NCBI GenBank assembly: GCA_038063455.1 | Contig: JBBTVB010000003.1 | Location: forward strand, 1,714 to 65,713 | Reading direction: 5' to 3' | From: Patescibacteria group bacterium | GTDB taxonomy: Bacteria > Patescibacteriota > Patescibacteriia > PEXW01 | Length of the DNA: 64,000 nt | Shown: positions 291 through 46,500 of the stretch, in pieces | Layout of the letters: each line of letters starts with the position of its first letter | Position numbering within the stretch: the stretch's first letter is position 1 | Notes under the pieces: model-generated | What the model saw: only the letters and a program-made list of their open reading frames with translations | The model's database searches: none | Told to the model about the DNA's origin: nothing | Made by a program: the position numbers and the translations under genes

Positions 291-341
291 ATGTTCACGC
301 TTTCTCTAGCTAAAAGCCTTCCCTGCGCCTACACAGCTGCG

Positions 342-350
342 TGCTACAAT
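342..350 (+). promoter_or_regulatory. Extended -10 box TGcTACAAT, 6 nt before ATG 357 (leaderless-type)
   Basis: TG 342-343, TACAAT 345-350, ATG 357. No SD in between. Confidence 0.5.
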
Positions 351-356
351 CAGGCC

Positions 357-12624: not shown

Positions 12625-12655
12625 CATCCTCTCCCAGTGGAGAGGATGGGTTTTA
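12625..12655 (+). terminator. Rho-independent terminator
   Basis: CATCCTCTCC (12625-12634) / GGAGAGGATG (12639-12648), loop CAGT, then GGTTTT. Confidence 0.8.
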
Positions 12656-12902: not shown

Positions 12903-12931
12903 ATGACAATACAGATGAAACTTAGTATAAT
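12903..12931 (+). promoter_or_regulatory. galU promoter ATGACA-17-TATAAT
   Basis: ATGACA 12903-12908, 17-nt spacer, TATAAT 12926-12931. ATG is 27 nt downstream. Confidence 0.65.
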
Positions 12932-12958: not shown

Positions 12959-13834
12959 ATGCAAAAAATCCGCAAAGCCGTTATTCCCGCCGCAGGATTA
13001 GGCACGCGCTTCCTGCCCGCCACCAAGGCGATGCCCAAAGAAATGCTCCCCATCGTGGACAAGCCCATTATTCAGTACGTGGTAGAAGAGGCCGTGGCCA
13101 GCGGCATTGAAGATATCATCATTGTAACCAGCAGCAACAAGCGCTCGCTGGAAGACCACTTTGATTACCCATACGAACTCGAAAAAAAATTGGAAGAAGC
13201 TGGTAAACATGAACTCTTGCAGGAAATCCGTCGCATTGCCGGGCTAGCCAACTTCATTTACGTGCGCCAACGCGGGCCCTACGGCAACGCCTCCCCCGTC
13301 CTGACCGCCAAGCACATCGTGGGCGACGAACCCTTTGCCGTGCTGTGGGGCGACGAATTCATTCATGCCGAGCCACCACGACTCAAACAAATGGTGGACG
13401 TGTACAACGAATACGGAAAATCCGTGATTAGTGCGGTACGCATTCCTAACCCCCAAGATGTGAGCAAGTACGGCATTGCCGATGTCGAAACCGTGAAAGG
13501 CACGGTCCATCGGATTAAACAGATTGTCGAAAAGCCCAAGCCCGAAGAAGCACCCAGTAACCTGGCGGCGCATGGGGCGTATATCCTGACGCCAAAAATC
13601 TTCGAGCACCTCAAAGCACTTAAGCCCGGCAAAGGTGGGGAGCTGTGGCTGGTGGATGCCATTAATGCCCTGGCCAAAGCGGACGACGTGTACGCCAAGG
13701 AAATTGAAAATGGCGACTACTATGACACGGGCAACAAATTTGACTACTTGCGCGCGAACATTGAGTTTGCCTTGCAACGGGATGACCTGCGCGACAAACT
13801 GCTGGCCTACCTGCGCACCAAACTCCAAGACTAA
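12959..13834 (+). CDS. galU: UTP--glucose-1-phosphate uridylyltransferase
   Basis: KAVIPAAGLGTRFLPATKAMPKEMLPIVDKP, VLWGDEF and the overall GalU pattern. Confidence 0.95.
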   Translation: MQKIRKAVIPAAGLGTRFLPATKAMPKEMLPIVDKPIIQYVVEEAVASGIEDIIIVTSSNKRSLEDHFDYPYELEKKLEEAGKHELLQEIRRIAGLANFIYVRQRGPYGNASPVLTAKHIVGDEPFAVLWGDEFIHAEPPRLKQMVDVYNEYGKSVISAVRIPNPQDVSKYGIADVETVKGTVHRIKQIVEKPKPEEAPSNLAAHGAYILTPKIFEHLKALKPGKGGELWLVDAINALAKADDVYAKEIENGDYYDTGNKFDYLRANIEFALQRDDLRDKLLAYLRTKLQD

Positions 13835-13837
13835 CGT

Positions 13838-15235
13838 ATGGACCCATTTAAGAAGCGACTCATCATCCTCGGCGGCGTACTTATACTAACGGTCGCCGGC
13901 ATTATTGCGTACCGACTGCTTACTGGCGGCGGCGGCACGGCGGATTCCACCATCGTGAAAACTCCACCCAAAGCCGTGAAGTTAGCCTGGTGGGGTGATT
14001 TACCGACCGCACAAGCTCAGCCGATTATTTCAGCTTATACGGCGACCCGACCGTACGTAACTATTACCTACACCCAACTCGATGCAGCAACCGGCGAGCA
14101 GCAACTCATCGAGGCCTGGGCGCGCGATGCTGGGCCGGATATTTACGCGCTCCGCAACGAGGAGCTGCGCCATTTTGCCAGCTCCGGGCTGGTCACGCCC
14201 ATGCCCGCCACGACGGTAAGCTACACCTACACCAAAAAAAAGTCGTTGGGCATTAAAGAAACTATCGAAATCCGCAAAGCCGAACGCGCGGCACCATCAC
14301 GGGAAACCCTGCAAAGCAGTTTCGTGGCCGGGGCATTTAAAGACCTGTACCAAAACGGCCAAATTCTTGGGTTCCCCTTGCAATTCGACAGCGTGGCCAT
14401 GTTCTACAACCAGCAGCTCCTCGATGAGGCGGGCATCCTGACCCCCATGCAAAACTGGGACAGCTTCGTGCAACTGATTCCAAAACTTACCTTGGAAGAT
14501 GACAAAGGCGACCTGGTGCGGGCGGGCGTGGCGCTGGGACGGAGCACCAACGTGCTGCGGACCCCAGAAATTTTTACCGCGCTGTTCCGCAGCTACGGCA
14601 TTGAGCTCACGGATGCGACCAACACCCAGGTCACTTTTGCCAGCGATAAGAATGCAGCCGGCGCGCTGGCACTGCTGACGAGCTTTGCCACCCCGACAAA
14701 AAAGACCTACACCTGGAACGAAACGTTCCCCGCTGCACTAGATGCGCTGGCACAAGGGAAGGTTGCGATTGCCTTTGGTACAGCCGCAGATTATGCCGAT
14801 GTCACCAACCGCACCACCGGGGCGGACATTCGCGTGGCGGCATTCCCCCAAGGCTTCCAGAAGAGCTACGTGGCAGACTACAAGGTGCAGACGGTGGCAA
14901 AAAAAGTGAAGGATGCCAACGTCGCTTGGGACTTCTTGCGCTTTGCCGCCGACCCAGCCCAAGCCAAGACACTGGCCACCACCAGCGGCCGCACCCCGGC
15001 AATTCGCACGCTCGTAGACGAAATTGTTGCCAGCGAAACTGACGTCGCGGGGGCCAAGGTGTTTGCCCAGCAGGCCGCCACGGCCAGCGGCTGGTTTAGC
15101 GGCATCGACCCCGAGCAAGGCCGCAAAGCCCTAAATGAGCTCGTGGATGATGTGGCGAGCGGCAAAGCCACAGCCGCTGATGCCTTCACCCGCGCCGCAC
15201 AGCTCTTCACCCTCGCGCTGGGCAGCAAGAAATAA
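13838..15235 (+). CDS. TM-anchored extracellular solute-binding protein (ABC SBP family 1-like), orphan
   Basis: N-terminal TM helix, then an SBP_bac_1-like pattern (LAWWGD..., GPDIYAL, FPLQFDSVAMFYN). No permease or ATPase gene in the window. Confidence 0.65.
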   Translation: MDPFKKRLIILGGVLILTVAGIIAYRLLTGGGGTADSTIVKTPPKAVKLAWWGDLPTAQAQPIISAYTATRPYVTITYTQLDAATGEQQLIEAWARDAGPDIYALRNEELRHFASSGLVTPMPATTVSYTYTKKKSLGIKETIEIRKAERAAPSRETLQSSFVAGAFKDLYQNGQILGFPLQFDSVAMFYNQQLLDEAGILTPMQNWDSFVQLIPKLTLEDDKGDLVRAGVALGRSTNVLRTPEIFTALFRSYGIELTDATNTQVTFASDKNAAGALALLTSFATPTKKTYTWNETFPAALDALAQGKVAIAFGTAADYADVTNRTTGADIRVAAFPQGFQKSYVADYKVQTVAKKVKDANVAWDFLRFAADPAQAKTLATTSGRTPAIRTLVDEIVASETDVAGAKVFAQQAATASGWFSGIDPEQGRKALNELVDDVASGKATAADAFTRAAQLFTLALGSKK

Positions 15236-15238
15236 ATT

Positions 15239-16096
15239 ATGCGCAAGTCTTTCCTGGTCACGCTACTTATACTCGGCGCATGTGCAGCCTTCCCGCGGCC
15301 CACGCACGCGCTGGCAAATTTGCCGCCGATTATCCCCGACTGCGACCAGACTCGATACATTGTACAAGCCAAAGATGGCGTGGTGAGCAGCCCAAGTGGT
15401 CCAATCCCACCCAGGTTCAAAGAAACTATTTCACCTGACGTTTACGGTGAGGATAAGCCCTATCCAGATTCACAATGGAACCTGGTCGGCTACACCACCA
15501 GTGGCAACTGCACGCTTAACGACTTCCTGCAGCTGTTCATCAACTTGTTTGGCTGGATGCTGTACATCATCTCCATCCTGGCTGTTGTTATGTTCTTTAT
15601 CGGTGGGGGCACGCTGCTTACCTCTGCGGGCAGCGAAGAGCGGGTGCGCACCGGCAAGGCTATTCTCACCAATACCGTTATTGGCATTGCCATTGCCTTG
15701 GGCAGCTGGCTGATTATTAACACGGTGTACATTGCACTGCTGCCCGACGACAATACAAAAAATGGAATTGCATACATCATAAAAAACCAGCAACCGTGGT
15801 TTCGGACATCAGCTTCCAAGACCACGGCCGCGTGTTCTGAGCCACCCCAGTACCCATGTAAGGGCGGGGCTGGTGCCGGGGCCGTTCGGCAGGCGCAGGA
15901 CCTACTGTATACCAATGGCTGCTACGTCAGTGCCGGAACCCGTGAGCAAGAAGTGGACGGGAGTTTTGGTCAGAAGACCTTGGCCGCCTGGAAACTCTGG
16001 CAGCAAATAAATGGGCGTCCCACAACTGAAACTCTAACGGGCTATGAGGAGTTCGCTATAAGTTGCAGCACATTTTTTAACAACCTCACCCCATGA
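15239..16096 (+). CDS. TrbC/VirB2-like pilin domain fused to a C-terminal peptidoglycan-binding domain
   Basis: Signal peptide. Two-TM core LFGWMLYIISILAVVMFFIGGGTLLTSAGSEERVRTGKAIL..IGIAIALGSWLIIN resembles the two downstream paralogues. C-terminus VRQAQDLL..NGCY...VDGSFGQKTLAAWKLWQ resembles PG_binding_1. Confidence 0.6.
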   Translation: MRKSFLVTLLILGACAAFPRPTHALANLPPIIPDCDQTRYIVQAKDGVVSSPSGPIPPRFKETISPDVYGEDKPYPDSQWNLVGYTTSGNCTLNDFLQLFINLFGWMLYIISILAVVMFFIGGGTLLTSAGSEERVRTGKAILTNTVIGIAIALGSWLIINTVYIALLPDDNTKNGIAYIIKNQQPWFRTSASKTTAACSEPPQYPCKGGAGAGAVRQAQDLLYTNGCYVSAGTREQEVDGSFGQKTLAAWKLWQQINGRPTTETLTGYEEFAISCSTFFNNLTP

Positions 16097-16467
16097 AGCC
16101 ACAAAACTCCCCCGTGCACACCCAACATCGCATTGGTCTTGCGCTTACCACCGTCGGTCTCTGGCTTATGCCCCTGGCGGCGTTTGCCGATGGTACCGAT
16201 ACGCAACTCACGAATCCCCTTGGCGTCGATGACCCGAAGCTCTTCATTATCCGCATCCTGCGGTACGCCCTGGGTTTTCTGGGTATTGTTGCCCTGATTA
16301 TGATTATCTACGGAGGTTTCCTCATGCTCACGTCGGGCGGGAATGCGGATACGGTCAAACGTGCAAAATCCACACTTATCTGGGCAGCAGCGGGCATGGC
16401 GGTTATATTGGGTAGCTGGTCGATTATTAGCTTTATCTTCAATACTGCAAACGAAGTGGCTAAATAG
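16093..16467 (+). CDS. TrbC/VirB2-like (T4SS-pilin-like) small membrane protein
   Basis: Signal peptide, NPLG, LGFLGIVALIMIIYGGFLMLTSGGNADTVKRAKS, AAAGMAVILGSWSII. This family is common in CPR genomes (from memory). ATGA overlap with the upstream gene. Confidence 0.65.
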   Translation: MKPQNSPVHTQHRIGLALTTVGLWLMPLAAFADGTDTQLTNPLGVDDPKLFIIRILRYALGFLGIVALIMIIYGGFLMLTSGGNADTVKRAKSTLIWAAAGMAVILGSWSIISFIFNTANEVAK

Positions 16468-16469
16468 CG

Positions 16470-16499
16470 TTGACAGTGAGACGAAAATAGTGGTATAGT
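16470..16499 (+). promoter_or_regulatory. Promoter TTGACA-18-TGgTATAGT
   Basis: TTGACA 16470-16475, TG 16491-16492, TATAGT 16494-16499. About 85-nt leader with SD AAGGGGGTG before ATG 16592. Confidence 0.65.
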
Positions 16500-16591
16500 C
16501 TTGGTGTTCCGCAAGGGACAAAATATATACAATCTTGCGCTCGCTCACCTTCGGTGGGCACTGCACAACATTCGAAAGGGGGTGAAACAAC

Positions 16592-16951
16592 ATGAAATTA
16601 AACCGCAAATTGGTCGCTGGTCTCATTTCGGTAGGTGCGTTGGCACTGCCGTTTGCCGCATCGGCACTTAGTTTTGAGGATCCAAGCCTGACGATAGGCG
16701 TCGGTTCTGCTGACCTCAAAGAGACCGTTCTTAATATCATCACTTTCGTGCTCGGCCTGTTAGGCCTCATCGCTGTCATCATGATCCTCTACGGTGGATT
16801 CATCTGGCTGACAGCCGGTGGCAACGAAGACAAGGTTGGTTCTGCCAAGAAGATCATCTCGGCCGCTATCGTGGGCCTCATCGTGATCCTCCTGTCATGG
16901 GCAATCGTCAACTTCGTGGTCAAGAGCACCGTCAACGTGACGGGTGGCTAG
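16592..16951 (+). CDS. TrbC/VirB2-like (T4SS-pilin-like) small membrane protein, third paralogue
   Basis: Signal peptide, LGLLGLIAVIMILYGGFIWLTAGGNEDKVGSAKK, IVGLIVILLSWAIVNF. Confidence 0.65.
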   Translation: MKLNRKLVAGLISVGALALPFAASALSFEDPSLTIGVGSADLKETVLNIITFVLGLLGLIAVIMILYGGFIWLTAGGNEDKVGSAKKIISAAIVGLIVILLSWAIVNFVVKSTVNVTGG

Positions 16952-16975
16952 TTTTACTGACTTTCGAAACCAATG

Positions 16976-17005
16976 AGTCCTGCCATATGGCGGGACTTTT
17001 GGTTT
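16976..17005 (+). terminator. Rho-independent terminator
   Basis: AGTCCTGCC (16976-16984) / GGCGGGACT (16989-16997) with one G-U, loop ATAT, then TTTGGTTT. Confidence 0.65.
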
Positions 17006-17024: not shown

Positions 17025-18935
17025 ATGAACCGACGTACTGCTTACCTGACCATTAGTGCCCTTGGTCTAGTCGTCACCGGCTGGACGCTAACACTGGCAA
17101 TCGCAAAAATGCATGCGGGGGCAATGTCCGCGCTCGACCTAGGCATTTACACGCAGGTGGCCTGGCTTACCGCGCATGGCCACTGGTTTGGGCTCACTAT
17201 CCACCCCCACCTCTACCTGGGCGACCATGTGGAGCTCCTGTATGCGGTTGCCGCAATCCCCTTTCGGTTTGGCGCTGGGTCGTTGACGCTCATTGGCCTG
17301 CAGTGCCTTGCTGCCGTTGGCGCAGCGTTTGCGCTTTTTGGTTTTGCACGGCGTTGCCTTTCCGCTGCGATGGCCTGTGGCGTAGCCGCGCTCTTCTTGC
17401 TCAACCCGTTCACGCTTAATGCGCTCAACTTTGAATTCCATGCTGTCTGGTTTGGACTACCCTTTGCCTTCCTCGCTGCCACCGCGTTCGCGGACAAGCG
17501 CATGGGTAAATTCTGGCTCTGGGCGGGTATCATGTTGTTGGCGCGAGAAGACCTGACGCTGCTCTTGGCTGGCTTTGCGCTGCTTGCACTTTTAGAAAAA
17601 CGCGGTCGGGCCTGGTGGCTGTGGCCCGGGCTGGCAGCCATCATTTGGTATGTGGGTGCGGGCTTACTTGCAGGAGCAATGAACGGCGAAGGTTATAAGT
17701 TCCTCAGCTTCTTCCATCCCAGCACGCTCGGTGCTGGTACGGTGTCGAGTGGCCTACTGGGTATCCTCCAGCTTGGTAACCTCCTCGTGCTGGTAGCGCT
17801 CCTACTTTCTGTCCTCCTGCTGCCGCTGCTCGCCTGGCGCTGGCTCGTCTTGCTCGTCCTGCCACTTATTGGCATTGGTCTTGCTGGTATTAGCTCTGGC
17901 GATCTCATTTTGCAAACCCACTACGCCACTTTTTTCTTACCCGGATTATTCTGCGGCGCAGTGGTAGGGTGGCAAACATTATGGCAGCGTCCGCCACAGT
18001 GGCTTGCCAGCCTAGGTAACCACAGCCTGCCCCTTACGCTTGCGCTGATCGGTGTAGTAAGCCTCTACAGCGCGTTAACCTTTGGCCCCACCATTGGGGC
18101 AGTGCGCGCGTGGCAACAGGTTAGCCCTGCCGAAAAATACAAGGCGCGCGAAGCGGTGCGGAATATCTGGGAATACTCACCGCGTGACGCCTCGGTGCTA
18201 GCCGGTTATGCTACTCTGCCCTACTTTGCTGCACGACCGCAGGTGTATGCAGCGCACTATGCTTTCTTGGGCAAGCGCCAATTTAGTGAAAAACCATATC
18301 CTGTGCCTGAAAACTTAGACATGGTAGTTATGGACGCGCAAGATTTTGTAACCTATCAACTACAGTATAGCGACGGCAAGCACCAAGCCGCCTACCAAAG
18401 CGGCGCCGAGCGGTTTCGCGAACTCCTAGCAGCACGAAATTTACGCTTAACAAGTACTTTCGACACGCTGCTGCACTTCACGCGCTTTACAGGTGAAGAC
18501 AAACTCTTACAACTGGTTACCAGCACAACCGGCTCACCATTGAGCGGCGTAGAATTTTCTTTACAGAGCGTTTCGACAACGCTAGTGGTAGACCCAGACA
18601 CGCAACTTGCCACACTCCAACTCCGCGGCCAGGTTGGCAACCCAGCACTTCCAAACGTGCAGGCCCGGCTTCGCTGGCTAGATGCAAAAGGCAGAACGCT
18701 GGAAACGCGGCTGCTACCGCTTGGCTACGGACTCATGCCGACAACAAGCTGGAAAACGGATGAGGTGGTAACGACCATCTTCACCCTCATGACGCCAAAA
18801 AATGCGGCGAGTGCTAAGGTGGAGGCAATTGTGCCACACGGCCACCTGCAGCTTAACGGCTGGCGCGTACCGATGATGGTGCTTGATGAAGAGACGCGGG
18901 TGGTAAGCCAGCGTTTGAGCTTACCGCTGCAGTAG
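17025..18935 (+). CDS. DUF2079-family polytopic membrane protein (GT-C-like)
   Basis: N-terminal SALDLGIYTQVAWLTAHGHWFGLTIHPHLYLGDHVEL resembles the DUF2079 signature. About 12 TM segments plus a soluble C-terminal domain. Confidence 0.65.
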   Translation: MNRRTAYLTISALGLVVTGWTLTLAIAKMHAGAMSALDLGIYTQVAWLTAHGHWFGLTIHPHLYLGDHVELLYAVAAIPFRFGAGSLTLIGLQCLAAVGAAFALFGFARRCLSAAMACGVAALFLLNPFTLNALNFEFHAVWFGLPFAFLAATAFADKRMGKFWLWAGIMLLAREDLTLLLAGFALLALLEKRGRAWWLWPGLAAIIWYVGAGLLAGAMNGEGYKFLSFFHPSTLGAGTVSSGLLGILQLGNLLVLVALLLSVLLLPLLAWRWLVLLVLPLIGIGLAGISSGDLILQTHYATFFLPGLFCGAVVGWQTLWQRPPQWLASLGNHSLPLTLALIGVVSLYSALTFGPTIGAVRAWQQVSPAEKYKAREAVRNIWEYSPRDASVLAGYATLPYFAARPQVYAAHYAFLGKRQFSEKPYPVPENLDMVVMDAQDFVTYQLQYSDGKHQAAYQSGAERFRELLAARNLRLTSTFDTLLHFTRFTGEDKLLQLVTSTTGSPLSGVEFSLQSVSTTLVVDPDTQLATLQLRGQVGNPALPNVQARLRWLDAKGRTLETRLLPLGYGLMPTTSWKTDEVVTTIFTLMTPKNAASAKVEAIVPHGHLQLNGWRVPMMVLDEETRVVSQRLSLPLQ

Positions 18936-18936
18936 C

Positions 18937-20571
18937 CTACTGGCCGGACCCTGCCACTACGTATACCAGCGCATCAGTATTTTTGTAGGCTACGCGGAGC
19001 GGGAGAGAAAATGTTTGTAGCATTGCAAATGCGGCAACATCATCCTGCCGAATGACAACATGGGTAATGCGACTTTCACGTAAGAATGCTAGTCGATCGA
19101 TAGCAGCATTTGGGGTAAAAAATGCTTGTACCGAAACGGTTTTCGCCTTGCTCTTCGCCGTAAGATCAGCGTGGCCGAGAAAAACAGTCCGGCCAGCCCA
19201 ACCTGGGAGCAGGTTGCTGTCGTTGGGGCGCGCAAGCACTACCGCCTCGACATCGGAAGTATCGCGCACCCACTGGAATGCTTGTACAACGCCAGTGGGC
19301 ATGGAAACTGGTTCGCGGCCAAAGGCTGCATAGTACGCATCTTTTACCAGATGTGTCAGGCTTGTGATGCCCATGAGAATAATGACGAGTGTTATGCCGG
19401 TTGCAATTACTGCGCCTTCAACCAGCGCGCCGCGCTTTCGTGCCCGCTGCCAAAAAGCTTGCACGGCAACCGCACCCAGTACCACCAGGGCAATGAACCA
19501 ACCTTCCATCATCCGGCGCTGGTATGGAAAATAGGGCAAGTACAGCAGGAGTGGCACTACTCCCGCCCACGTAACCACTACAAAAGTGCGAGTGGTTCCG
19601 GTGCGGAGAGCTCGTGGAAAAGCCATAAAGGCCAAAACGCAAGGAATGAGATACGCTGGCAAGTACCACCACACGGCCGGGGATAATGTTACATTTTGCG
19701 CGGCCCAGCCAGCCAGGCCAGGCTGTATCGCAAAAATCGTTCGGAGGGTTCCCAAGGCCAAAACCGCAGGTAGCAACACCAGTACGAGTAGCCTGAGGTA
19801 GGAGCGAGCCCGTTGTACAGACCACGTGCGATCTCCCAGCACGCGGACAAAAAAATGCCCCGCGAGTACCGCGGCAATAAGGAACACATCATACGGATGG
19901 ATGATAGCAAGGATAAGCAGCAGGCCGCTGGCAAACCATGCCGCCACAGTATCTTGCTGGTCATAGGCGCGCTCAACGAGCATGAAAACCGCAAGAATAC
20001 CGCACAAACCCATGAGAAACAGCGGATTATGATACAACGATAAGAATGGAAATGCCTCGGGTACCCACAAGTCAATGGGGATAGCCAGGGTACGTACCGC
20101 ATGCGCTATATCCCCTATTGGCACAAATGCACCAAAACCCGTACCAAAACTTAGCACGGTCATGGCCACCATACGCACACGGTGGGCGGGGAGCATCCCG
20201 GCAATAAAATGGTACGCCAAGATTAAAAAAAGGATGCTAAAACCAACGCGCGTAAGTTGATACGCAACAATATTGGATACATGAAAAAGCTTTGCGAATT
20301 GACCAACCGCATACCATTGTGGGGTAAGCACTGCGGCAACCGGTTGGGCTTCGCTAGAAAATAGATTACGGCTAAAAACCTGCCCTTGACGGCCCTGTTC
20401 AATGAAAGAGTAGTACACAGAAATATCACCAGGCGTGAGCCGGTGAATGCCGGTGTACGTTCGATGCGCCGGGGTTGCAAGCCAGCCAAAAACGTAGGGC
20501 GCACTGGTAACCAAAACTACTGCGGTTATAAGCCAAATCAAAAACCTGACCTCCGCGCGCTGCAACTTCAT
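18937..20571 (-). CDS. Polytopic membrane protein, GT-C-fold glycosyltransferase-like
   Basis: 544 aa, more than 10 TM segments plus a C-terminal soluble domain. 4-nt start/stop overlap with the upstream GT2. Family not recognised precisely. Confidence 0.5.
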   Translation of the reverse strand: MKLQRAEVRFLIWLITAVVLVTSAPYVFGWLATPAHRTYTGIHRLTPGDISVYYSFIEQGRQGQVFSRNLFSSEAQPVAAVLTPQWYAVGQFAKLFHVSNIVAYQLTRVGFSILFLILAYHFIAGMLPAHRVRMVAMTVLSFGTGFGAFVPIGDIAHAVRTLAIPIDLWVPEAFPFLSLYHNPLFLMGLCGILAVFMLVERAYDQQDTVAAWFASGLLLILAIIHPYDVFLIAAVLAGHFFVRVLGDRTWSVQRARSYLRLLVLVLLPAVLALGTLRTIFAIQPGLAGWAAQNVTLSPAVWWYLPAYLIPCVLAFMAFPRALRTGTTRTFVVVTWAGVVPLLLYLPYFPYQRRMMEGWFIALVVLGAVAVQAFWQRARKRGALVEGAVIATGITLVIILMGITSLTHLVKDAYYAAFGREPVSMPTGVVQAFQWVRDTSDVEAVVLARPNDSNLLPGWAGRTVFLGHADLTAKSKAKTVSVQAFFTPNAAIDRLAFLRESRITHVVIRQDDVAAFAMLQTFSLPLRVAYKNTDALVYVVAGSGQ

Positions 20572-21299
20572 AAACGACCTCGCAGCATTGCTACCCGCAA
20601 ACGAAAAAGCTGGATAAGGTAATGCGTAATGGTCCGCAACACATGCACTTTACTTTTTCGCAATGCTGGCCGCGTTTCTACCCACGAAACAGGCAGCGCA
20701 CGTACCCGGAAACCCCGTCGTTCAGCCTGCAGCAGTAGCTCGGTATCGAAAAACCAGCCGTCGTCACGGACGGACGGCAACAATTGTACGGCGACTGCTT
20801 TTCGAATCGCCTTAAAACCACACTGTGCATCGCGCGTTTTCAATTGTATGCAAAGCCTAGTAAGAAAATTATAGCCCACCGACGTCACGCTGCGCATGAA
20901 TGAGCGTTGAATCTTTGCGCCAGTAGCATACCGCGAGCCTACCGCGATGTCCGCCGCCCCACTGGCAATCATGTCAACCAATGGGGCAACGGCATCAAGC
21001 GCAACCGCCAAATCTACATCCATGTACAAGCTAATATCAAAATCCATTGTATTCCAAGCAGTACGCAAAGCTATGCCGCGACCTTTCTGAGGAATCCGCA
21101 GGTACTGCAAGCCGGGCAGCTCTTGCTGGAGAGCCACGACCACGGCAGAAGTATTATCTGTTGAAGCATTATCAACAACCACTAACGACCAATCAAATGC
21201 CTGCAGAGCTGCCGATGCATAGCCCATTACCGTGCGCACGCTCCAGGGTAAGATGGTCGCTTCGTTGTATGCGGGAAGTATAAGCGTGAGTTTGGTCAT
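20568..21299 (-). CDS. GT2 glycosyltransferase (polyprenyl-phosphate sugar synthase-like)
   Basis: LILPAYNEA, VVVDNASTDNT, DVDLA (DxD), CGFKA, FFDTELL. Confidence 0.85.
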   Translation of the reverse strand: MTKLTLILPAYNEATILPWSVRTVMGYASAALQAFDWSLVVVDNASTDNTSAVVVALQQELPGLQYLRIPQKGRGIALRTAWNTMDFDISLYMDVDLAVALDAVAPLVDMIASGAADIAVGSRYATGAKIQRSFMRSVTSVGYNFLTRLCIQLKTRDAQCGFKAIRKAVAVQLLPSVRDDGWFFDTELLLQAERRGFRVRALPVSWVETRPALRKSKVHVLRTITHYLIQLFRLRVAMLRGRL

Positions 21300-22564
21300 G
21301 TAACAGCGCGTCGACGAGCCATCCGAGTGTACCAGAAAACTGTGGCAGCAAAAATGGCTACGTTAAGCATAGCGACTATGAGTGACCCGCCCCAAAAGTT
21401 ATCCAGGCGCGTACCCTCATGTTGCGTGAGAATAATAAACACCACCACAAGATTCCAAAGAAATGTACATGAAAGTGCTACGTACAGCCAGCGGGCGGGA
21501 CGAAAAGCCGGCAGCGCAGGGATGAGTAGTGCAAAAAATGGAAAGAGGTAGCGCTCGTGCATCTGGGTTGGAAGCATAAAAAATGCAAAGGCGAGAAATG
21601 CCGCGGCTAGCCACAGCCCTTCAGTGGCCTTTGCTCGTGATCGAAACCAAACTGCAAAAGCCACGGCACTAAAAAATAGCCCTGCCCCAATAAGCACCAT
21701 GGGCATACCGAAGAGTGAGGCAACATCGGTACGGTACGTCCAATACCCGCCAGAAAAAAACCACCAAAGATTAAATGCGTTCGCCGACGGCACAGGGTTG
21801 GTATCTTTTGCCTGAGCAATAACCTGGAATACTTGGTTGGTCTTACCAGTTAAAACAAAAGGCAAACATAACATGAACGCCGTCCCTAGCCCGGCTCCAA
21901 GACTCCGTATGAGGGTTCGCCAATATGGCCAACGATGAAATATGGCATACGCCAAAAGTGGAGCGAGTGCTAGGCTTTGTAATTTAATAAAAAATGCAGC
22001 TGTAAATGCCACCACCGCCCATGTTAACTTACGTTGCGTCAGCAGCCAGACACATAACACCATGAAGAAGGTATTAATGGCATCTACTTGGCCCCAAGCC
22101 GCAGTCGTAAACAACATTGCGGGGTTGGCTGCATACAGTACCGCGGCCCCCAGTGCCCAACTTTCGCCCCAGCGCCTTCGAACAATGTGGGCTAGGAGAA
22201 GTATTGTTGCCAGCTCAAAGAGTATTGCGGGTGTTTTAAAAATAATTGAGGATAAAGGGGTGCCTACCGCGGTTGCTGGTTCAAACAACGCATGTACTTG
22301 TGCAAGGACGTGCAACGTCATCAAGTAAGGCGGAAGGTAGTTAGGGAGCGCAATAATTCTATAGTCAGGATGTTCAATCGGGTGCTCGTATACCTTGGTT
22401 AGGCCGTACGTGCTTGCGCTATAGCCCCATAACTGGAAAAGTAATGTGTCGCCACGCGACTCGATGGATGTTTGTGGGGCGATGACAAAACGAATTGCGG
22501 CCGCCCCAAAAATAATGAAGGTGAGAATGCGGCGGTAGTTTAGCACTACTGAGGGTTTAGTCAT
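21296..22564 (-). CDS. GT-C-like membrane mannosyltransferase-type protein (DUF2029/PMT_2-like)
   Basis: 422 aa, about 11 TM segments. The first loop contains D/E residues and NYLPPYLM. Translationally coupled within the operon. Confidence 0.5.
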   Translation of the reverse strand: MTKPSVVLNYRRILTFIIFGAAAIRFVIAPQTSIESRGDTLLFQLWGYSASTYGLTKVYEHPIEHPDYRIIALPNYLPPYLMTLHVLAQVHALFEPATAVGTPLSSIIFKTPAILFELATILLLAHIVRRRWGESWALGAAVLYAANPAMLFTTAAWGQVDAINTFFMVLCVWLLTQRKLTWAVVAFTAAFFIKLQSLALAPLLAYAIFHRWPYWRTLIRSLGAGLGTAFMLCLPFVLTGKTNQVFQVIAQAKDTNPVPSANAFNLWWFFSGGYWTYRTDVASLFGMPMVLIGAGLFFSAVAFAVWFRSRAKATEGLWLAAAFLAFAFFMLPTQMHERYLFPFFALLIPALPAFRPARWLYVALSCTFLWNLVVVFIILTQHEGTRLDNFWGGSLIVAMLNVAIFAATVFWYTRMARRRAVT

Positions 22565-24116
22565 TGCGAGAGATTACCCAAGCCTTATGGGGATTTGAAA
22601 AGCCGCGAAGAGGTATGCGGCCCAATACATTGGTCCCAATATACTGGCCTGTAGATACTTCGGCGAAGACGGCGCCCGCCCGCGACGAGGGACACTGGGC
22701 TCGCTTGCAAAAGTGGTAACGGCCAAGACGCGTAGTACGGTACCAATTGATGCTCGTAATTTCGAAATCATGATCTTTCGCAAGTGTGGTTGGATTCCAT
22801 GGGCGCAAAAGCATGAAGAATATTTGCGGCTGATTCAAACCGTCGTCAACAATCCACACCTCATTTGCGGGCGTACGCTCTAGCCGCGCAACCAATGTGT
22901 GAATCTCCGGGGCAAAAAAAATATTTGCCTGCCCAAAACCTAAGCCAAAAAAATTCGATGGCTGAACAAATACTACCAAGCCAGCGGCTCCAAGGGCAAG
23001 CCCTACCGCAGCAGCACTAATTTGCTGCCACCGGAAACGCAACCACGTAGTCACTAGCGATTTGCTGCTGCGCACAATGCTCCAGGTACCTACGATAAAT
23101 AGTACGCTTAAAAGCCCACTTGGTCGTATTTGGTGAGGATTTGCATCGGTAAGCATGGCGGGTAAAAGCGCCGCCACCAACCAACTCAGAAGCATGACGT
23201 GAAACCAGCGCTCCGTGCCAGCTGGGCGGGCGGAGAAAAAGAAAAGGGGTATGCCAAAAAAGAAGAGCAAAAAATCAATGGGTCCAACGGAAATTTGTCC
23301 TAGGCCCCAATGCAAAAGATTGAAGTAGGCTAAAAAATTATTGCCAAGCTGACGCAGGCCCGGCACAACGCCGTTTTGAAAAATTGAAATCTCCTGAAAA
23401 TGTCCTGCCCCCAATTGGTTGGCAGAAAGTGAAAGCAGTGGAATAAGTAACACGGCAACAACCCCAAGCGCAACCCAAGTTGAGGGGTGGCGCCAGTGGA
23501 TGCGTCGAAAAGTGAGGCTAACTGTCAGAATCGATGCGAGTGGAAAAAACAACCTGCCTGCGCCGTAGCCAAAAAAACCCGCGCCCCAGGCCAGCACCGC
23601 CAGCGGCATAAGCCACGGGCGTCGGTCCACTGCAGAAAAGTATGCCACGGCACCTAGGCTAAACAGCGTTGGGAGCCACACCGCTTCGTGGCCCAGACGG
23701 CTTAGTGTAAGGTGCCAAGGCGAAACTGCAAGTGCAGCGCCCGCAAGTAAGCCAATATTCCAACTGCCACAAAGTCGCTTGCCCAAAAGAATCGTTGCCC
23801 AGACCAGCAGCACCCCGGCGAGGGCGGAAGGCAAACGAGTTGCAACTAGCCCGGGGCCAAAAATTGCCGTTGTTGGTATTGCGGCATATGCAGAAATAGC
23901 CGAAGCGTTATCATTTTCATGGCTAAATGCTTCTAGGGTAAGTGGCCACGGGTGGCCATGCTGGTCACGCCCGGTGGTAAGCAAACTATACGCTTCGTAG
24001 CCGCGCTCGGCTTCGTCTTGATTTATGCCGTACGGCACGCGCTCTAGGGCAACAATGCGCAACAGGCTTGCAATAAAGAGTACCGCAATAAAAAAAATAC
24101 GCTGGCGCGGTGTCAT
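22557..24116 (-). CDS. ArnT/PMT-like (GT39/GT83-type) membrane glycosyltransferase
   Basis: Track ORF 22557-24191. LLRIVALERVPYGINQDEAERGYEAYSLLTTGRDQHGHPWPL is the typical first-loop motif. Start set at ATG 24116, which forms an ATGA overlap with the upstream GT2 stop. Confidence 0.7.
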   Translation of the reverse strand: MTPRQRIFFIAVLFIASLLRIVALERVPYGINQDEAERGYEAYSLLTTGRDQHGHPWPLTLEAFSHENDNASAISAYAAIPTTAIFGPGLVATRLPSALAGVLLVWATILLGKRLCGSWNIGLLAGAALAVSPWHLTLSRLGHEAVWLPTLFSLGAVAYFSAVDRRPWLMPLAVLAWGAGFFGYGAGRLFFPLASILTVSLTFRRIHWRHPSTWVALGVVAVLLIPLLSLSANQLGAGHFQEISIFQNGVVPGLRQLGNNFLAYFNLLHWGLGQISVGPIDFLLFFFGIPLFFFSARPAGTERWFHVMLLSWLVAALLPAMLTDANPHQIRPSGLLSVLFIVGTWSIVRSSKSLVTTWLRFRWQQISAAAVGLALGAAGLVVFVQPSNFFGLGFGQANIFFAPEIHTLVARLERTPANEVWIVDDGLNQPQIFFMLLRPWNPTTLAKDHDFEITSINWYRTTRLGRYHFCKRAQCPSSRAGAVFAEVSTGQYIGTNVLGRIPLRGFSNPHKAWVISRND

Positions 24117-24910
24117 ACTGTCGCCGAAACAGTCGAACGTGAGAACTTTTGACTCTTGCGTAGCTTTACCCGCGACATAAGGTATTCGCACAATGCAAAA
24201 ATGATACTTATACCGTAGCGTACGCCAGCCCGAAAACCAACAGTATGCGCGTCTTTAAAGTACCGCGTGGGTATAGGAATTTCACGTATGCGGAAGCCGT
24301 GGACTTTACATTGGATAATAAACTCCGTGTCAAAAACAAAACTATTGCTATTGTGCTGAAATGGTAAAGTTTGTAGCACCTGGCGGCTGTAGGCGCGGAA
24401 GCCTGAATGGTACTCACTCAAGCGCAGCCCGAGAACGCTGTTCTCTAGTAACGTAAGTCCAATATTTGCAACCTGCTTCCACCACGGCATGCCGCCGCGG
24501 CGCGCACCACCTTTCCATAACATGCGTGAGCCAAAAACTACATCGGCCTCACCACGTAAAATCGGTAAAACCATTTCTGGCACCAGGACGGGGTCGTACT
24601 GGTGGTCGGGGTGAATCATGATGACCACATCGGCCTCTCGCCGCAACGCCTCGGTGTAGCACGTTTTTTGGTTGCCACCATAGCCGGTATTGTGTGCGTG
24701 GACGATAGGCGTTAGTCCCAAGCGTCGAGCCTCTGCGACAGTACCGTCGGGGCTCGCATCGTCCACCAAAACCACTTCGTCTACCCAGTCGCTCGGAATG
24801 TCATTTAAGGTTTTCTCAAGTGTGCGCTCTGCCTCGTATGCAGGTAAAACCGCAATGATTCGGTACTTTTTTCGGACTTCTTGAAGGTTCCACATGTTCT
24901 TAGGGTACAC
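24113..24910 (-). CDS. GT2 glycosyltransferase (polyprenyl-phosphate sugar synthase-like)
   Basis: AVLPAYEAE, VLVDDASPDGT, HPDHQYDP, SGFRAY, FDTEFI. GTG at 24910 is preceded by TACAAT (minus, 24919-24924) 8 nt upstream. ATG 24895 is an alternative start. Confidence 0.85.
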   Translation of the reverse strand: MYPKNMWNLQEVRKKYRIIAVLPAYEAERTLEKTLNDIPSDWVDEVVLVDDASPDGTVAEARRLGLTPIVHAHNTGYGGNQKTCYTEALRREADVVIMIHPDHQYDPVLVPEMVLPILRGEADVVFGSRMLWKGGARRGGMPWWKQVANIGLTLLENSVLGLRLSEYHSGFRAYSRQVLQTLPFQHNSNSFVFDTEFIIQCKVHGFRIREIPIPTRYFKDAHTVGFRAGVRYGISIIFALCEYLMSRVKLRKSQKFSRSTVSATV

Positions 24911-25071: not shown

Positions 25072-25707
25072 TTATTGAATATTGACAGTTTTCAATTGTG
25101 TCTTTTCCAGCAGCAGCATGGTCCACGGGATTGGCTGCTTACCCGTCTGCACCACAAATGCCTGGCTTACAAACCGCCGAAAGCCCCAGGGCGTCCAGTG
25201 GTTAATGTGGCCTGGTGTATTGCCCCAGCCCCGCACGTACGTGCCCCGCGCCAGGTTCATAACCCGCCAGAGCGGCTCGTTGGGCACGCTAATTATGGCC
25301 CATTTCTTCGTGACGCGTGCCAATTCTTTCAGGGCGTCCAACGGGCGGTCCAAGTGCTCCAGCACTTCCAGAGCAAAAACAAGATCCACACTCGCGGCTT
25401 TGCGCTGCAAATCATAAATGGACTCGACGCTGCACTGCACCGTGGGGTTGCCCTGCTTCGTAAGTTCAACCAATGCCGGGGTGACATCGGAGGCGTGGAG
25501 CTGCGCGCTTGGCAAAAATGTTCGCAGTTTCTGGGTGGAATAGCCTTCACCACACCCAACTTCTAAGGCGCTCGTGACGTCGGCGGGAATCAGGTGGTGC
25601 AAGGTCGCAAAAAAATTCCGCAAGAACATTTGCATAATTGGGTTCTTCGATTCGTACTTGCCGCGGAAGTCTTCTTCCGGTTTGGTTATGTGGGGCGCGT
25701 GCATCAT
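25072..25707 (-). CDS. Class I SAM-dependent methyltransferase
   Basis: ALEVGCGEGYST, DLVFALEVLEHL. 4-nt overlap with the upstream membrane-protein gene. Confidence 0.85.
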   Translation of the reverse strand: MMHAPHITKPEEDFRGKYESKNPIMQMFLRNFFATLHHLIPADVTSALEVGCGEGYSTQKLRTFLPSAQLHASDVTPALVELTKQGNPTVQCSVESIYDLQRKAASVDLVFALEVLEHLDRPLDALKELARVTKKWAIISVPNEPLWRVMNLARGTYVRGWGNTPGHINHWTPWGFRRFVSQAFVVQTGKQPIPWTMLLLEKTQLKTVNIQ

Positions 25708-27308
25708 TGGGCAGCGGGGTTATGCCACGAGTAAATCCAAACTTCGGTGTCTTCGTAGGCCAGCATGACGCCAGGGACGGTGCGGACATTCACGTTCATG
25801 GCCGTGTGATCTTTCTCAACCAGAATCCACTTTGTTTTGAAGAGGTCAAAGGCTTCGGCCAGATTTTCCCGCCGCTCGCCCAGGGTGGTCTTGGCCCAAG
25901 CCCAGTAGCGCTCTTGGTCTTGGCGGTAGAGGAACGTGGGGTCCAAGCCGGCAATGTAGGCGTTGGTCGTGTCGTAGTAGAAGAGTACCGGAAAGTCGTC
26001 CCAGTCGCTATGGAACACCACGTCACCTTTTTGCGAGTGCTCGGCCAGCCACGTCGCGGAGGCCTGGAAGTGCGTGGCATTCACGCCCGACGTTAAGTTG
26101 CGGTAATTGGTCCGCTGGTCGCGGGCGATAATGTACGGCACGCTCACGATGACGTAGAGCGCAACCAACACCGTGACGCTGCGTCGACGCTGCCAAGCTT
26201 CCCGCAGAAAACTCTTGATGGTTTGCCAGTCGTGCCGGTCAAGCACGTCGGCCAGGAGCGTTGCGGCTGCCAGGGCAATGAACGGCACGGCGTACTCCAC
26301 GTAGCGTCGTGACTTCAGGGTGAAGGCGGTAAAAAATGCTGCCAGCACAACCATGGTCCAGCTGCGGCTGGTGGTCCGCCGCACGCGCACCAACGCCAGG
26401 ACAAAAGCGATAACAAACGGCACAATAACCACAACATTATTCCCAATAAACTCCGCGACTTTATACGGGTACCACTCCCCGCCCACGCCAATGACGTTAC
26501 GGTAATTGACCACGCCAATCTGGATGGCCTGCTCCCACAAAAAATTGAAGGTGTTGGGGAAGAATGGATTGGCAACCGTGCCCACGCCCACGCCAGCCAG
26601 CACGCACAAGAACATCTGAAGCGGTCGGTACTTTTTTAAACCTCGCCATTTCCACCATGGCGCGTGCAGGGCGTCGGTCATCCGAGTGCGCCAATTCCAC
26701 CAGTGCTGGATGAGATCAAAAGCCATGCTCACGGCCAGGTAGATGCCGGCGGCGGCAACCAGCACGAAAAAACCACCGTAGAGCAACACGAAAAACCAGG
26801 CGAGAAAGAAGCTGGCGATACGCTTCCCGTTGAAAATCAAAAATATGCCAAGAATAAGTGTGGCCAAGGAAAGGCTGGGCGCTTTAGCCAAACTCATCCG
26901 AAAGGTAAACGGCGTGGCTGCCAGCAAGACCAGGCCCCACGCCCAGGCATGTTTGACGCCATACCGTATGAGGAACCACACCGCGGTAGTAATAAGCAAG
27001 GCGGCAAAAAAGACGGTGGCGAGCTTGATACCCACCAAGGGATCCATGAGGGTCACAAATGGCACGAGCAGAGCATGATACAGCCAGTGCTGATCAATGT
27101 AGTGTTGGCCGAGCGTCGTATAGGGTAGCCAGGGAAATTCCCGCACTGCGCCCTGTTCCGCCGTCAGCACGCCGAGCCGCGCATGGTAGAACGAGTCGGG
27201 ATCGGCAAAAATCGGATTTGACTGCAAGGCAAAAAACACGCCGAAAGCAACGATGAAGGTGGCAAACAACGTAAGGACGGTGGCGTGCTCACGCCAGGGG
27301 TTGGTCAT
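25704..27308 (-). CDS. Polytopic membrane protein, GT-C-fold glycosyltransferase-like
   Basis: 534 aa, more than 10 TM segments. First-loop motif ADPDSFYHARL resembles the acidic loop of GT-C enzymes. C-terminal soluble domain. Confidence 0.5.
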   Translation of the reverse strand: MTNPWREHATVLTLFATFIVAFGVFFALQSNPIFADPDSFYHARLGVLTAEQGAVREFPWLPYTTLGQHYIDQHWLYHALLVPFVTLMDPLVGIKLATVFFAALLITTAVWFLIRYGVKHAWAWGLVLLAATPFTFRMSLAKAPSLSLATLILGIFLIFNGKRIASFFLAWFFVLLYGGFFVLVAAAGIYLAVSMAFDLIQHWWNWRTRMTDALHAPWWKWRGLKKYRPLQMFLCVLAGVGVGTVANPFFPNTFNFLWEQAIQIGVVNYRNVIGVGGEWYPYKVAEFIGNNVVVIVPFVIAFVLALVRVRRTTSRSWTMVVLAAFFTAFTLKSRRYVEYAVPFIALAAATLLADVLDRHDWQTIKSFLREAWQRRRSVTVLVALYVIVSVPYIIARDQRTNYRNLTSGVNATHFQASATWLAEHSQKGDVVFHSDWDDFPVLFYYDTTNAYIAGLDPTFLYRQDQERYWAWAKTTLGERRENLAEAFDLFKTKWILVEKDHTAMNVNVRTVPGVMLAYEDTEVWIYSWHNPAAQ

Positions 27309-46499: not shown

Positions 46500-46500
46500 A

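Follow-up and report, generated by a model that had tools for sequence, protein, structure and literature searches.

In the ultrasmall bacterium (Patescibacteria) considered here, a conserved block links a sugar-activating enzyme and a solute-binding protein (SBP) lacking a transporter with three genes for VirB2-type pilins, and a cell-wall-binding domain is fused to the first of these pilins. The block lies in a window of 64,000 nucleotides, the whole stretch of DNA analysed, and its features and those of its flank are as follows, in window coordinates.

12625..12648, plus strand: terminator-like hairpin 3' of the upstream ADH gene, the left boundary of the unit
12903..12931, plus strand: promoter-like site P1 (ATGACA-17-TATAAT) 5' of galU, 11/12 consensus matches
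12959..13834, plus strand: galU, UTP-glucose-1-phosphate uridylyltransferase, 291 aa (TIGR01099)
13838..15235, plus strand: TM-anchored family-1 solute-binding-fold protein (the SBP), 465 aa (SBP_bac_8, SBP_bac_1)
15239..16096, plus strand: position-1 pilin-like fusion, 285 aa (PF18895 plus a PG_binding_1-like C-terminus)
15536..15739, plus strand: VirB2-type two-helix hairpin of the fusion, aa 100-167 (PF18895; model helices 93-128 and 133-167)
15791..15802, plus strand: QPWF motif just past TM2, aa 185-188 (Q185, P186, W187 and F188 invariant in the family)
15827..16093, plus strand: PG_binding_1-like domain, aa 197-285, with four conserved Cys
16093..16467, plus strand: second pilin-like paralogue, 124 aa (PF18895)
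16470..16499, plus strand: internal promoter P2 (TTGACA-18-TATAGT, extended -10 TG) 5' of the third pilin, 11/12 consensus matches
16574..16584, plus strand: strong Shine-Dalgarno (SD) sequence GAAAGGGGGTG of the third pilin, near-invariant in nine species
16592..16951, plus strand: third pilin-like paralogue, 119 aa (PF18895)
16975..16998, plus strand: terminator-like hairpin 3' of the third pilin
17025..18935, plus strand: DUF2079 polytopic membrane protein, 636 aa (PF09852, 125 bits)
18937..24895, minus strand: envelope-glycosylation genes (Pfam), comprising a 544-aa 11-TM protein, a GT2, an ALG3/GT87-like protein, a PMT_2 and a second GT2
25704..27308, minus strand: 534-aa, ~10-TM protein with homologues flanking pilin arrays in distant lineages

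The five open reading frames from galU to the third pilin were all found as the initial annotation had described them, together with the junctions of 3 nt (galU/SBP), 3 nt (SBP/fusion) and an ATGA overlap (fusion/124-aa pilin); the tight junctions are kept in related loci and suggest translational coupling. galU scores 347 bits against TIGR01099 (cut-off 327, NCBIfam profile search) and is 82-90% identical across the clade. Since the order galU-SBP-fusion-pilin-pilin-DUF2079 is kept in 14 of 14 related loci, representing 8 GTDB species, the five-gene block is beyond chance; in these clade loci the block and its tight junctions are constant and the outer flanks vary. Both bounding hairpins have a 10-bp stem with 6 GC pairs and a T-rich tail. 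The -10 box of P1, TTAGTATAAT, is invariant in an alignment of nine species, and TTGAC and TGnTATAnT of P2 are likewise kept in nine species, so that the promoter (TTGACA-18-(TG)gTATAGT) and SD earlier assigned to the third paralogue are both present and conserved. P2 is the stronger of the two conserved promoters, and no obvious SD is seen at the other genes of the unit. Judged from the sequence, co-transcription of galU, the SBP, the 285-aa and the 124-aa genes from P1 is most likely.

Identification of the three short proteins as pilin-like was upheld by HMM search, in which each scored above the Pfam gathering score of 26.6 bits for PF18895 (T4SS_pilin): 32.8 for the fusion, 35.0 for the 124-aa protein (which also reached 22 bits, under the cut-off, against TrbC) and 47.7, the best of the three, for the 119-aa third pilin. 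Each is predicted to have a signal-peptide-like segment followed by two hydrophobic helices, and the paralogues are 26-40% identical to one another. A core motif, YGG(F/G)..LTxGG(N/S)...(K/R).AK, had been proposed for all three; it is found in the two short paralogues (YGGF..LTxGGN..xAK), and only an approximate version (IGGGTLLTSAGSEERVRTGK) occurs in the fusion. Within the clade, conservation of the pilins is highest for the third (66-87% identity), lower for the 124-aa pilin (60-74%) and lowest for the fusion (41-59%), which is also the fastest-evolving gene of the block. The 119-aa third pilin is likely the candidate major subunit.

As had been noted, no T4SS ATPase or coupling protein is nearby: the scan of window ORFs gave no family of the VirB4, VirD4 or VirB6 type, and the sole secretion ATPase in the window is a T2SSE/PilB protein at 51953-53743. 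Nor were VirB4, VirB6 or VirD4 seen in the ~9-kb flanks of more than 80 related loci, among the families listed (25 of 67). With none of the three linked, assembly of the array by a T4SS is unproven. Conjugative VirB2/TraA/CedA1 pilins share with the fusion a signal peptide and, after it, a hairpin of two helices with a short loop of basic character, and the Aeropyrum pernix conjugation pilin 8dfu aligned to the whole fusion model with a target-normalised TM of 0.61 at a non-significant E of 0.8 (Foldseek); they differ in that VirB4, VirB6 and a coupling protein are not linked here. To our knowledge, canonical conjugative pilins lack globular N- and C-terminal domains.

The fusion consists of a signal peptide, a beta-rich, Cys-bonded N-domain, the VirB2-type helical hairpin (PF18895 match at aa 100-162), the QPWF motif and the C-terminal PG_binding_1-like domain. 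A full-length AF2 model has a pLDDT of 74, and the C-terminal domain alone 87; an alignment of the 17 family members shows invariant Cys residues. The earlier assignment of the C-terminus as PG-binding is supported by four independent routes. Against Pfam PG_binding_1 it scored 21.4 bits (E 2.8e-4), just missing the cut-off of 23, and matches were obtained in 7 of the 17 family members. A profile of the domain matched L,D-transpeptidase, SleB and 1lbu in the PDB. The modelled fold was closest to the SleB N-domain (Foldseek, prob 0.90, RMSD 2.0 A, every E-value at least 0.46). In reverse, a profile from the domain alone pulls in 3,063 proteins, and nine of nine sampled non-fusion top matches were canonical PG_binding_1 repeat proteins. 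With modules of the SleB N-domain (6tci), SleC, L,D-transpeptidases (4lpq/8da2), Zn D-Ala-D-Ala carboxypeptidase (1lbu) and CtpB, the domain has in common a three-helix fold and the signature V..Q..L...G.Y....DG.FG..T..A...Q; the best module aligns with it over 56 columns at 30% identity, with the RMSD given above. In contrast to those enzymes, the module here is joined to a membrane hairpin rather than a hydrolase, has a 6-8-residue insertion and the four conserved Cys, and scores just under the Pfam cut-off. The fusion survey limited this architecture to one Kerfeldbacteria-like clade of ~17 proteins in 8 species. It had been put forward as undescribed, and the PG-binding pilin fusion does appear new to the literature searched.

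The array itself is not new, since tandem VirB2-like pilin arrays away from virB4 have been documented in Patescibacteria, in which PF18895 pilin arrays are common (Quinonero-Coronel et al. 2025, PMC12102498); in that work a pilin lay near virB4 in 1,135 of 1,948 assemblies and array paralogues had ~25% mean identity; the pilin series of Southlakia epibionticum is essential (Wang et al. 2023, PMC10633639). The present array agrees with these in its tandem chromosomal PF18895/TrbC-like genes, low paralogue identity and a position away from virB4, which is frequent among such arrays. It differs in that the first member bears extra extracellular domains including PG_binding_1, and in that galU and a transporter-less SBP precede the array and DUF2079 comes after it. 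An SBP, DUF2079 or PG-binding pilin is unmentioned in PMC12102498 and in the S. epibionticum cluster annotation (PMC10633639).

The SBP scores 75 bits against SBP_bac_8 and 74 against SBP_bac_1 (Pfam cut-offs 27 and 26), has a single N-terminal TM segment (aa 7-25) and retains many invariant aromatic residues typical of sugar-binding SBPs. That it stands without a transporter partner agrees with the scan of window ORFs, among which no ABC permease or ATPase was found, and neither ever adjoins the SBP in related loci. In distant homologues (26-36% identity) the next gene encodes a PF18895 pilin in 70 of 76 loci (92%), against a background of 3.4%, and all 65 of 65 first-position ORFs after the SBP match PF18895. 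The SBP-pilin gap has a median of 14 nt, and -4 overlaps are common. First-position pilins have N-terminal and post-TM2 motifs in common, including an aromatic W-F/W-W motif at the position of QPWF in distant members from seven loci, and C-terminal appendages that vary by lineage. Two contexts were seen: type A, galU-SBP-array-DUF2079, and type B, SMC-ComM-SBP-pilin-RodZ-like-RecA. The type-B loci are fairly close kin (one cluster at 55% identity), and independent contexts are therefore few, about four. As read from genes and their order, the SBP is a conserved partner of a distinct position-1 pilin class across deep lineages, with translational coupling apparently frequent; pilins of this class are always accompanied by a membrane-anchored SBP-fold protein that has no ABC partner. 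This pairing is a more general finding than the array and was undervalued in the initial annotation; across distant relatives it appears undescribed in the literature searched.

The reading preferred here, with middling confidence, is that a Kerfeldbacteria-like Patescibacterium carries on its chromosome a surface-filament module in which the position-1 protein ties the filament to peptidoglycan, with the SBP as partner. P1 would drive the four genes from galU to the 124-aa pilin, whereas P2 with its near-perfect SD would drive the 119-aa pilin, likely the major subunit, and the hairpin terminator would end the unit. The three PF18895 proteins are helical hairpins of the VirB2 type, inserted by Sec. 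In the position-1 protein, the disulfide domain at the N-terminus, the aromatic motif past TM2 and the appendage at the C-terminus would all face outward, and the protein would be a low-copy minor or nucleating subunit by which peptidoglycan is linked to the filament or to the site of its assembly. The SBP-fold protein would then be an extracytoplasmic partner of the position-1 pilin (adaptor, receptor or chaperone) and not a transporter component; surface glycosylation linked to the module probably comes from galU, DUF2079 and the GT2 (polyprenyl-phosphate-sugar) and GT-C genes. Such a module may function as a wall anchor, a host adhesin or an aid to uptake.

It is possible, though unlikely, that the position-1 pilin is inserted first as the putative tip and that its lineage-specific appendage, a PG_binding_1 module in this clade and a Cys-rich tail in others, serves to recognise the surface of the host cell, with the SBP helping host glycan recognition. 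PG-binding-domain proteins were proposed to act in Patescibacteria host attachment by Kuroda et al. (PMC10936435), who also found T4SS pilins among the most highly expressed genes in Patescibacteria. The variable appendage and fast-evolving fusion (against the third pilin) are as expected of a host-facing protein, but relaxed constraint could also explain the latter; only some hosts expose peptidoglycan, and no host is known for the clade.

SBP-fold proteins outside classical ABC operons have precedents. In the Sulfolobus bindosome, SBPs are assembled with pilin-like Bas proteins, and mycobacterial LpqW is an SBP-fold lipoprotein working with GT-C mannosyltransferases. Both resemble the present locus in that the SBP-fold protein is found with pilin-like proteins or envelope glycosyltransferases, and differ in pilin superfamily (type IV vs VirB2-type) and SBP family. 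A bindosome-like capture or uptake apparatus, in which a VirB2-type scaffold or conduit positions the SBP in the envelope or feeds it host-derived carbohydrates or metabolites that it passes to an unlinked importer or filament channel, is rather doubtful. It would suit the invariant aromatic residues and the near-obligate presence, in deep lineages, of pilin genes beside an SBP that has no transporter, and uptake from the host through the Patescibacteria pilus is raised as a speculation in a T4SS review (PMC12857230). However, no permease or channel gene is linked to the SBP, it has no known ligand, and the proteins on which the analogy draws are type IV pilin-like rather than VirB2-like.

The downstream genes bear on an envelope-glycosylation module, in which galU makes UDP-glucose, DPMS-like GT2s and GT-C-type enzymes (PMT_2, ALG3/GT87-like, perhaps DUF2079 and the 534- and 544-aa proteins) glycosylate surface proteins, and the PF18895 proteins and SBP are glycosylated clients or membrane scaffolds, with T4SS membership not required. 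Both GT2s are nearest to dolichol-phosphate mannose synthase 5mlz (E 7.6e-15 and 1.5e-8), and PMT_2 is a protein O-mannosyltransferase family. DUF2079 is always 3' of the array in type-A loci (17 loci), and a distant clade of these also has galU directly 5' of the SBP, so that the array is bordered by both genes in two clades, between which SBP identity is only ~32%. Homologues of the 534-aa protein adjoin pilin arrays in ten loci (jackhmmer, E 1e-98 to 1e-160) and a family member lies beside a GT2 in one more; a GT2 and a 534-aa family member thus stand beside pilin arrays in type-B loci as in the window, and T4SS genes are absent nearby. Against this, just 13 of the 65 distant loci have galU immediately 5' of the SBP, and searches for a GT-C relationship of DUF2079 and the 534-aa protein demonstrated none; the latter has no match in Pfam or the PDB, and the 544-aa protein is without Pfam annotation. 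As the whole explanation glycosylation is improbable, and it is compatible with a pilus role rather than an alternative to it.

Inherited synteny, with the SBP serving an ABC transporter encoded elsewhere and placed beside pilins by historical accident, would fit the compact, syntenic genomes of Patescibacteria and a SelR, ADH and methyltransferase neighbourhood also kept within the clade, but is most improbable given an adjacency that persists where both flanks have been fully replaced and the SBPs have diverged to 26-36% identity, and that occurs in 92% of loci against the 3.4% background with start/stop overlaps.

A chromosomal surface-filament module remains the preferred reading, and two minor observations concern its setting. 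The wider neighbourhood (SelR, ADH, methyltransferase) is, like the block, kept within the clade. Published Patescibacteria arrays are sometimes origin-proximal, and dnaA lies in the present window at 46728-48098, with the pilin block ~30 kb away.

The initial annotation had grouped galU, a solute-binding protein (SBP) and three pilin-like paralogues into one tight unit, with one pilin-like protein fused to a peptidoglycan-binding domain. That observation is confirmed, and the interpretation given with it is supported. The five open reading frames were recovered at exactly the same positions, with junctions of 3 nt, 3 nt and an ATGA overlap, as follows.

Features of the pilin unit (percentages are identities across the clade)
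12625-12648: hairpin terminator, predicted from sequence
12903-12931: P1, promoter-like site upstream of galU, ATGACA-17-TATAAT; -10 box TTAGTATAAT invariant in nine species
12959-13834, plus strand: galU (82-90% to the window protein)
13838-15235, plus strand: SBP (54-83%)
15239-16096, plus strand: pilin fusion, 285 aa (41-59%)
16093-16467, plus strand: second pilin, 124 aa (60-74%)
16470-16499: P2, promoter-like site before the third pilin, TTGACA-18-TG.TATAGT; kept in nine species
SD of the third pilin: GAAAGGGGGTG; kept in nine species
16592-16951, plus strand: third pilin, 119 aa (66-87%)
16975-16998: hairpin terminator, predicted from sequence
17025-18935, plus strand: DUF2079 protein (45-75%)

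GalU is identified by the TIGR01099 equivalog HMM (347.2 bits, trusted cut-off 326.8), and the SBP matches its families above cut-off (SBP_bac_8, 75.4 bits; SBP_bac_1, 73.7 bits) and has one N-terminal transmembrane segment. The pilin-like assignment holds for all three small proteins, which exceed the PF18895 (T4SS_pilin) gathering score of 26.6 with 32.8, 35.0 and 47.7 bits; 17 of 17 members of the fusion family also match. All three proteins of the window comprise a signal-peptide-like segment and a pair of hydrophobic helices with a short charged loop between them, as revealed by hydropathy, an AF2 model of the fusion (helices 93-128 and 133-167) and a comparison of the aligned cores. The fusion's core shares 26-27% identity with the short paralogues, and these share about 40% with each other.

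With PF18895 and PF04956 as queries, Quinonero-Coronel et al. (2025) surveyed 3,035 genomes of Patescibacteria and reported VirB2-like pilins in 1,948 assemblies, with virB4 nearby in only 1,135 of these, and 441 arrays of 2-11 divergent pilin genes that were tandem or separated by one gene (PMC12102498). Like those arrays, the window has tandem divergent paralogues, here three genes with 26-40% identity, and its relatives carry 1-11. Wang et al. (2023) found the six PF18895 pilins of the S. epibionticum T4SS cluster to be essential (PMC10633639). Lack of a T4SS ATPase or coupling protein near the window's pilins, as first described, was also borne out: VirB4, VirB6 and T4CP were not found in the 64-kb window, and a T4SS ATPase was not seen among the best 25 of 67 families into which the large ORFs around 80 related loci fall. 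Given these two studies, an array with no adjoining ATPase is an established feature of the phylum, and the pilin array itself is thus of a known kind. Neither study mentions an SBP, DUF2079 or a peptidoglycan-binding pilin, and full-text literature searches on SBP with pilin, peptidoglycan-binding VirB2, and DUF2079 in CPR/Patescibacteria returned nothing relevant; the peptidoglycan-binding fusion and the pairing of the SBP with the pilin directly after it (the position-1 pilin) appear to be undescribed variants. In S. epibionticum the annotated T4SS cluster lacks an SBP; the pairing therefore does not extend to the whole phylum.

The pairing was seen in lineages far from the window's own. 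Three SBP homologues with 26-32% identity each have PF18895 genes close downstream, in surroundings that otherwise differ: a Falkowbacteria contig has the SBP, then about 11 pilins, then DUF2079, and two other distant loci have gyrA upstream of the SBP and pilins 0-3 genes downstream. A metagenome scan with the four-sequence SBP alignment gave 347 relatives, from which 80 loci were kept; ORFs were called in 82 loci and searched with HMMs built from the window proteins. An ORF follows the SBP in 76 of the 82, and it is pilin-like in 70 of these 76, compared with 17 of 501 other genes of at least 100 aa that have a pilin as the following gene in the same pilin-rich loci. Pfam confirmed PF18895 in 65 of 65 first-position ORFs. 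SBP and pilin are separated by a median of 14 nt, with frequent -4 overlaps. Clustering of the 94 SBPs gives 44 groups at 70% identity and 3-4 groups at 40-50%, and the window SBP is 28-36% identical to the others. By profile search the family has 2,665 members at E <= 1e-10, those with names being labelled Falkowbacteria, Buchananbacteria or Patescibacteria, plus one labelled Bacillota. Two gene orders recur around the pair, both confirmed by independent gene calls.

Architectures of SBP-pilin loci
Type A (the window's type): galU-SBP-(3-11 pilins)-DUF2079
Type B: SMC-ComM-SBP-one pilin-RodZ-like HTH-RecA or methyltransferase-UPF0102

Type B loci often have a second array of 4-6 pilins about 5 kb away. 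Their upstream ORFs (about 900 and 505 aa) were considered as VirB4 and VirB6 and ruled out, as they match SMC and a ComM/Mg-chelatase-like protein. The type B setting (SMC, ComM, RodZ-like, RecA or methyltransferase, UPF0102; one large lineage, related loci L021-L099, for example L099 5582-13879) has a competence and recombination flavour, and recalls a published remark that comF, recG and radA occur in T4SS loci of the ABY1 class. An insertion of about 26 residues (…SLGIKE…, window SBP residues ~125-150) is common to the window-type SBPs and those of Falkowbacteria type (locus L016), and is absent from P0191 and P0192, which are more distant homologues.

Position-1 pilins form a distinct class, marked across architectures by a Cys...N-x-x-L-N-D-F segment before TM1 and an aromatic W-F/W-W motif just after TM2. 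Their median length is 158 aa, versus about 130 for later array members. Their C-terminal tails are lineage-specific, being Cys-rich in three related loci (L017, L032, L094) and containing PG_binding_1 only in the window's clade. With common motifs and variable tails, the window fusion is a local version of a conserved SBP-associated pilin. A survey of the fusion found 17 full-length relatives with 41-75% identity, all from Patescibacteria, and the species-level genome scan found it in 8 species, labelled Kerfeldbacteria, Parcubacteria or Patescibacteria. The signal peptide ends A-x-A/ANL, as judged from the family alignment and the model (full-length AF2, pLDDT 74), and is followed by a beta-rich N-domain in which Cys35 and Cys91 are conserved. 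The loop between the helices reads GGGTLL.S.GSEERVR.GK; an invariant QPWF motif, an S/T-rich disordered linker and a C-terminal domain with four conserved cysteines complete the protein.

The peptidoglycan-binding assignment of this last domain held up: the direct Pfam match (PF01471, 21.4 bits, E 2.8e-4) falls slightly below the cut-off of 23, but the domain profile retrieves PG_binding_1 proteins. Seven of the 17 family members match PG_binding_1 at E <= 0.01. A profile of residues 190-285 from 17 homologues has as its best PDB matches, at marginal E values of 0.02-0.3, the PG_binding_1 domains of an L,D-transpeptidase (8da2), SleB (6tci/4fet) and a Zn carboxypeptidase (1lbu), in alignments resting on a V..Q..L / DG.FG..T..A..FQ signature. 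As to the three-helix PG_binding_1 fold, AF2 modeled the isolated domain with a pLDDT of 87, and Foldseek placed the SleB N-domain first (probability 0.90, RMSD 2.0 Å, 30% identity), then SleC, L,D-transpeptidase, SltB3, CtpB, endolysins and YcbB; E is 0.46 or higher for all of these, as expected since the domain has only about 60 residues. The whole fusion gave no significant Foldseek match in the PDB (best E 0.59), so that only the kinds of match are informative. Searched in reverse against 1.84 billion representative proteins, the C-terminal profile gave 3,063 matches at E <= 1e-3. Of ten top matches sampled, nine are PG_binding_1 proteins of the canonical multi-repeat kind (Pfam E 2e-27 to 8e-193), some also carrying amidase or VanY/M15 peptidase domains, and the tenth, P0118, is a fusion-type pilin; the pilin-fusion layout occurs in only three 50%-identity clusters among the top 150. 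Homology of the C-terminal domain to PG_binding_1 is, in our view, established, and we infer that the domain binds peptidoglycan. VirB2 topology would put both appended domains outside the membrane, a fitting place for a wall-binding module. To our knowledge, this clade-specific appendage would be the first wall-binding module on a VirB2-type pilin.

The reading that we favor, at about an even chance of being correct, is a VirB2-type filament module in which a minor first subunit carries the wall-binding domain and the SBP-fold protein is its extracytoplasmic partner. The pairing and the distinct position-1 class are consistent with it; against it, no T4SS ATPase is linked. In the only Patescibacterium amenable to genetics, VirB2-type pilins are essential. 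For the question of what they do in a monoderm without conjugation functions, the conserved transporter-less SBP and the special first pilin offer testable handles: whether the two bind, which ligand the SBP takes, and whose wall the peptidoglycan-binding domain recognises. The same appended domain would also suit a host-binding tip adhesin, which we consider rather unlikely.

The SBP had been noted to have no permease or ATPase partner, and indeed no ABC component was found in the window; nor does an ABC permease or ATPase adjoin it in any of the over 80 related loci, where the SBP gene is preceded by galU or ComM and followed by a pilin. An SBP so placed might belong to a bindosome-like capture or uptake device, an unlikely explanation in our judgment. 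A bolder proposal, for Patescibacteria of Kerfeld-, Falkow- and Buchananbacteria type, would make the transporter-less SBP the dedicated extracellular part of a VirB2-type filament system, docked on a specialised first pilin whose appendage, here a peptidoglycan-binding domain, fixes the complex to a cell wall, and together forming a new capture or uptake apparatus for host material in auxotrophic epibionts; we regard it as improbable. Separately, S. epibionticum SEML1_0634, a family-5 peptide SBP by secG and a tRNA, is essential in Tn-seq (PMC10633639 supplement) and among the Tn-seq rows listed has no ABC partner beside it; it may be a further case, in a Patescibacterium, of an SBP that lacks a transporter and has an important role.

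The surroundings of the array suggest lipid-linked-sugar glycosylation tied to pilins. A polytopic DUF2079 protein lies 3' of the array in type A loci of both clades, and downstream on the opposite strand are two GT2s, both with dolichol-phosphate mannose synthase as closest PDB match, a PMT_2, an ALG3/GT87-like protein and two unannotated proteins with 10-11 TM segments. A 534-aa family recurs in these settings.

The 534-aa protein and a homologue
25704-27308, minus strand: window protein, about 10 TM segments, conserved DPDxGWH first-loop motif, no Pfam or PDB match
L099 14623-16212, minus strand: homologue in a type B locus

Ten distant loci have strong homologues next to their pilin arrays, as does a complete 911-kb genome carrying the type B module, where a GT2 adjoins; in all, PF18895 arrays have this neighbor in at least 11 distant loci, and a GT2 is frequently there too. 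The only pointers to GT-C in the DUF2079 and 534-aa families are the polytopic topology and the conserved first-loop motif: comparing DUF2079, PMT_2 and the 534-aa family with one another by hhalign gave probabilities of 0.3-7%, and the 534-aa family profile had no match in PDB or Pfam. DUF2079 sequence searched against the PDB gave ISG15 matches only, which are spurious. A glycosylation module with the pilins as its clients is a quite improbable account of the whole unit. The SBP, position-1 pilin, DUF2079 and 534-aa family form a recurrent gene set that could serve to annotate hypothetical proteins in their thousands across such genomes.

The order galU-SBP-fusion-pilin-pilin-DUF2079 is kept in 14 of 14 related loci with junctions of -4 to about 20 nt, and the outer genes vary, ADH being present or absent and the glycosyltransferase sets differing. 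Inherited synteny alone could give such an order within a clade, and with the pair recurring in otherwise different contexts we give it very little credence. The third pilin had been credited with its own promoter and SD, and the retention of both agrees with this; the leader between P2 and the gene is conserved in neither sequence nor length (nine species). These signals, as predicted from sequence, would fit galU, the SBP and two minor pilins being co-expressed at a low level, and strong expression of the third, most conserved pilin as the putative major subunit.

Several other window genes deserve mention. Large ORFs without a Pfam family (E <= 0.001) lie at 291-1643 (plus, 450 aa), 40311-42173 (plus, 620 aa), 54333-55382 (minus, 349 aa) and 18937-20571 (minus, 544 aa); the 544-aa product, with 11 TM-like segments, has homologues 3' of DUF2079 in related loci. 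A 499-aa sigma-70-like protein (3487-4986, minus) matches regions 3 and 4 only, with a long N-terminal part that has no family match. Between the glycosyltransferase genes and the 620-aa ORF, a 354-aa protein (39120-40184, minus) combines a histidine-kinase-like ATPase, a STAS-like DUF4325 and a weak N-terminal match to a FaeA-like HTH. An origin-proximal set at 45390-50192 consists of dnaN, dnaA, then yidD, yidC and a PRC-barrel protein, with the pilin module about 30 kb from dnaA. An Rfam match to AsdA (RF02674, antisense RNA of dnaA mRNA) at 47553-47633 (plus; 57.7 bits, gathering score 52) lies antisense inside dnaA (46728-48098, minus) and may merely reflect the conserved dnaA coding sequence.
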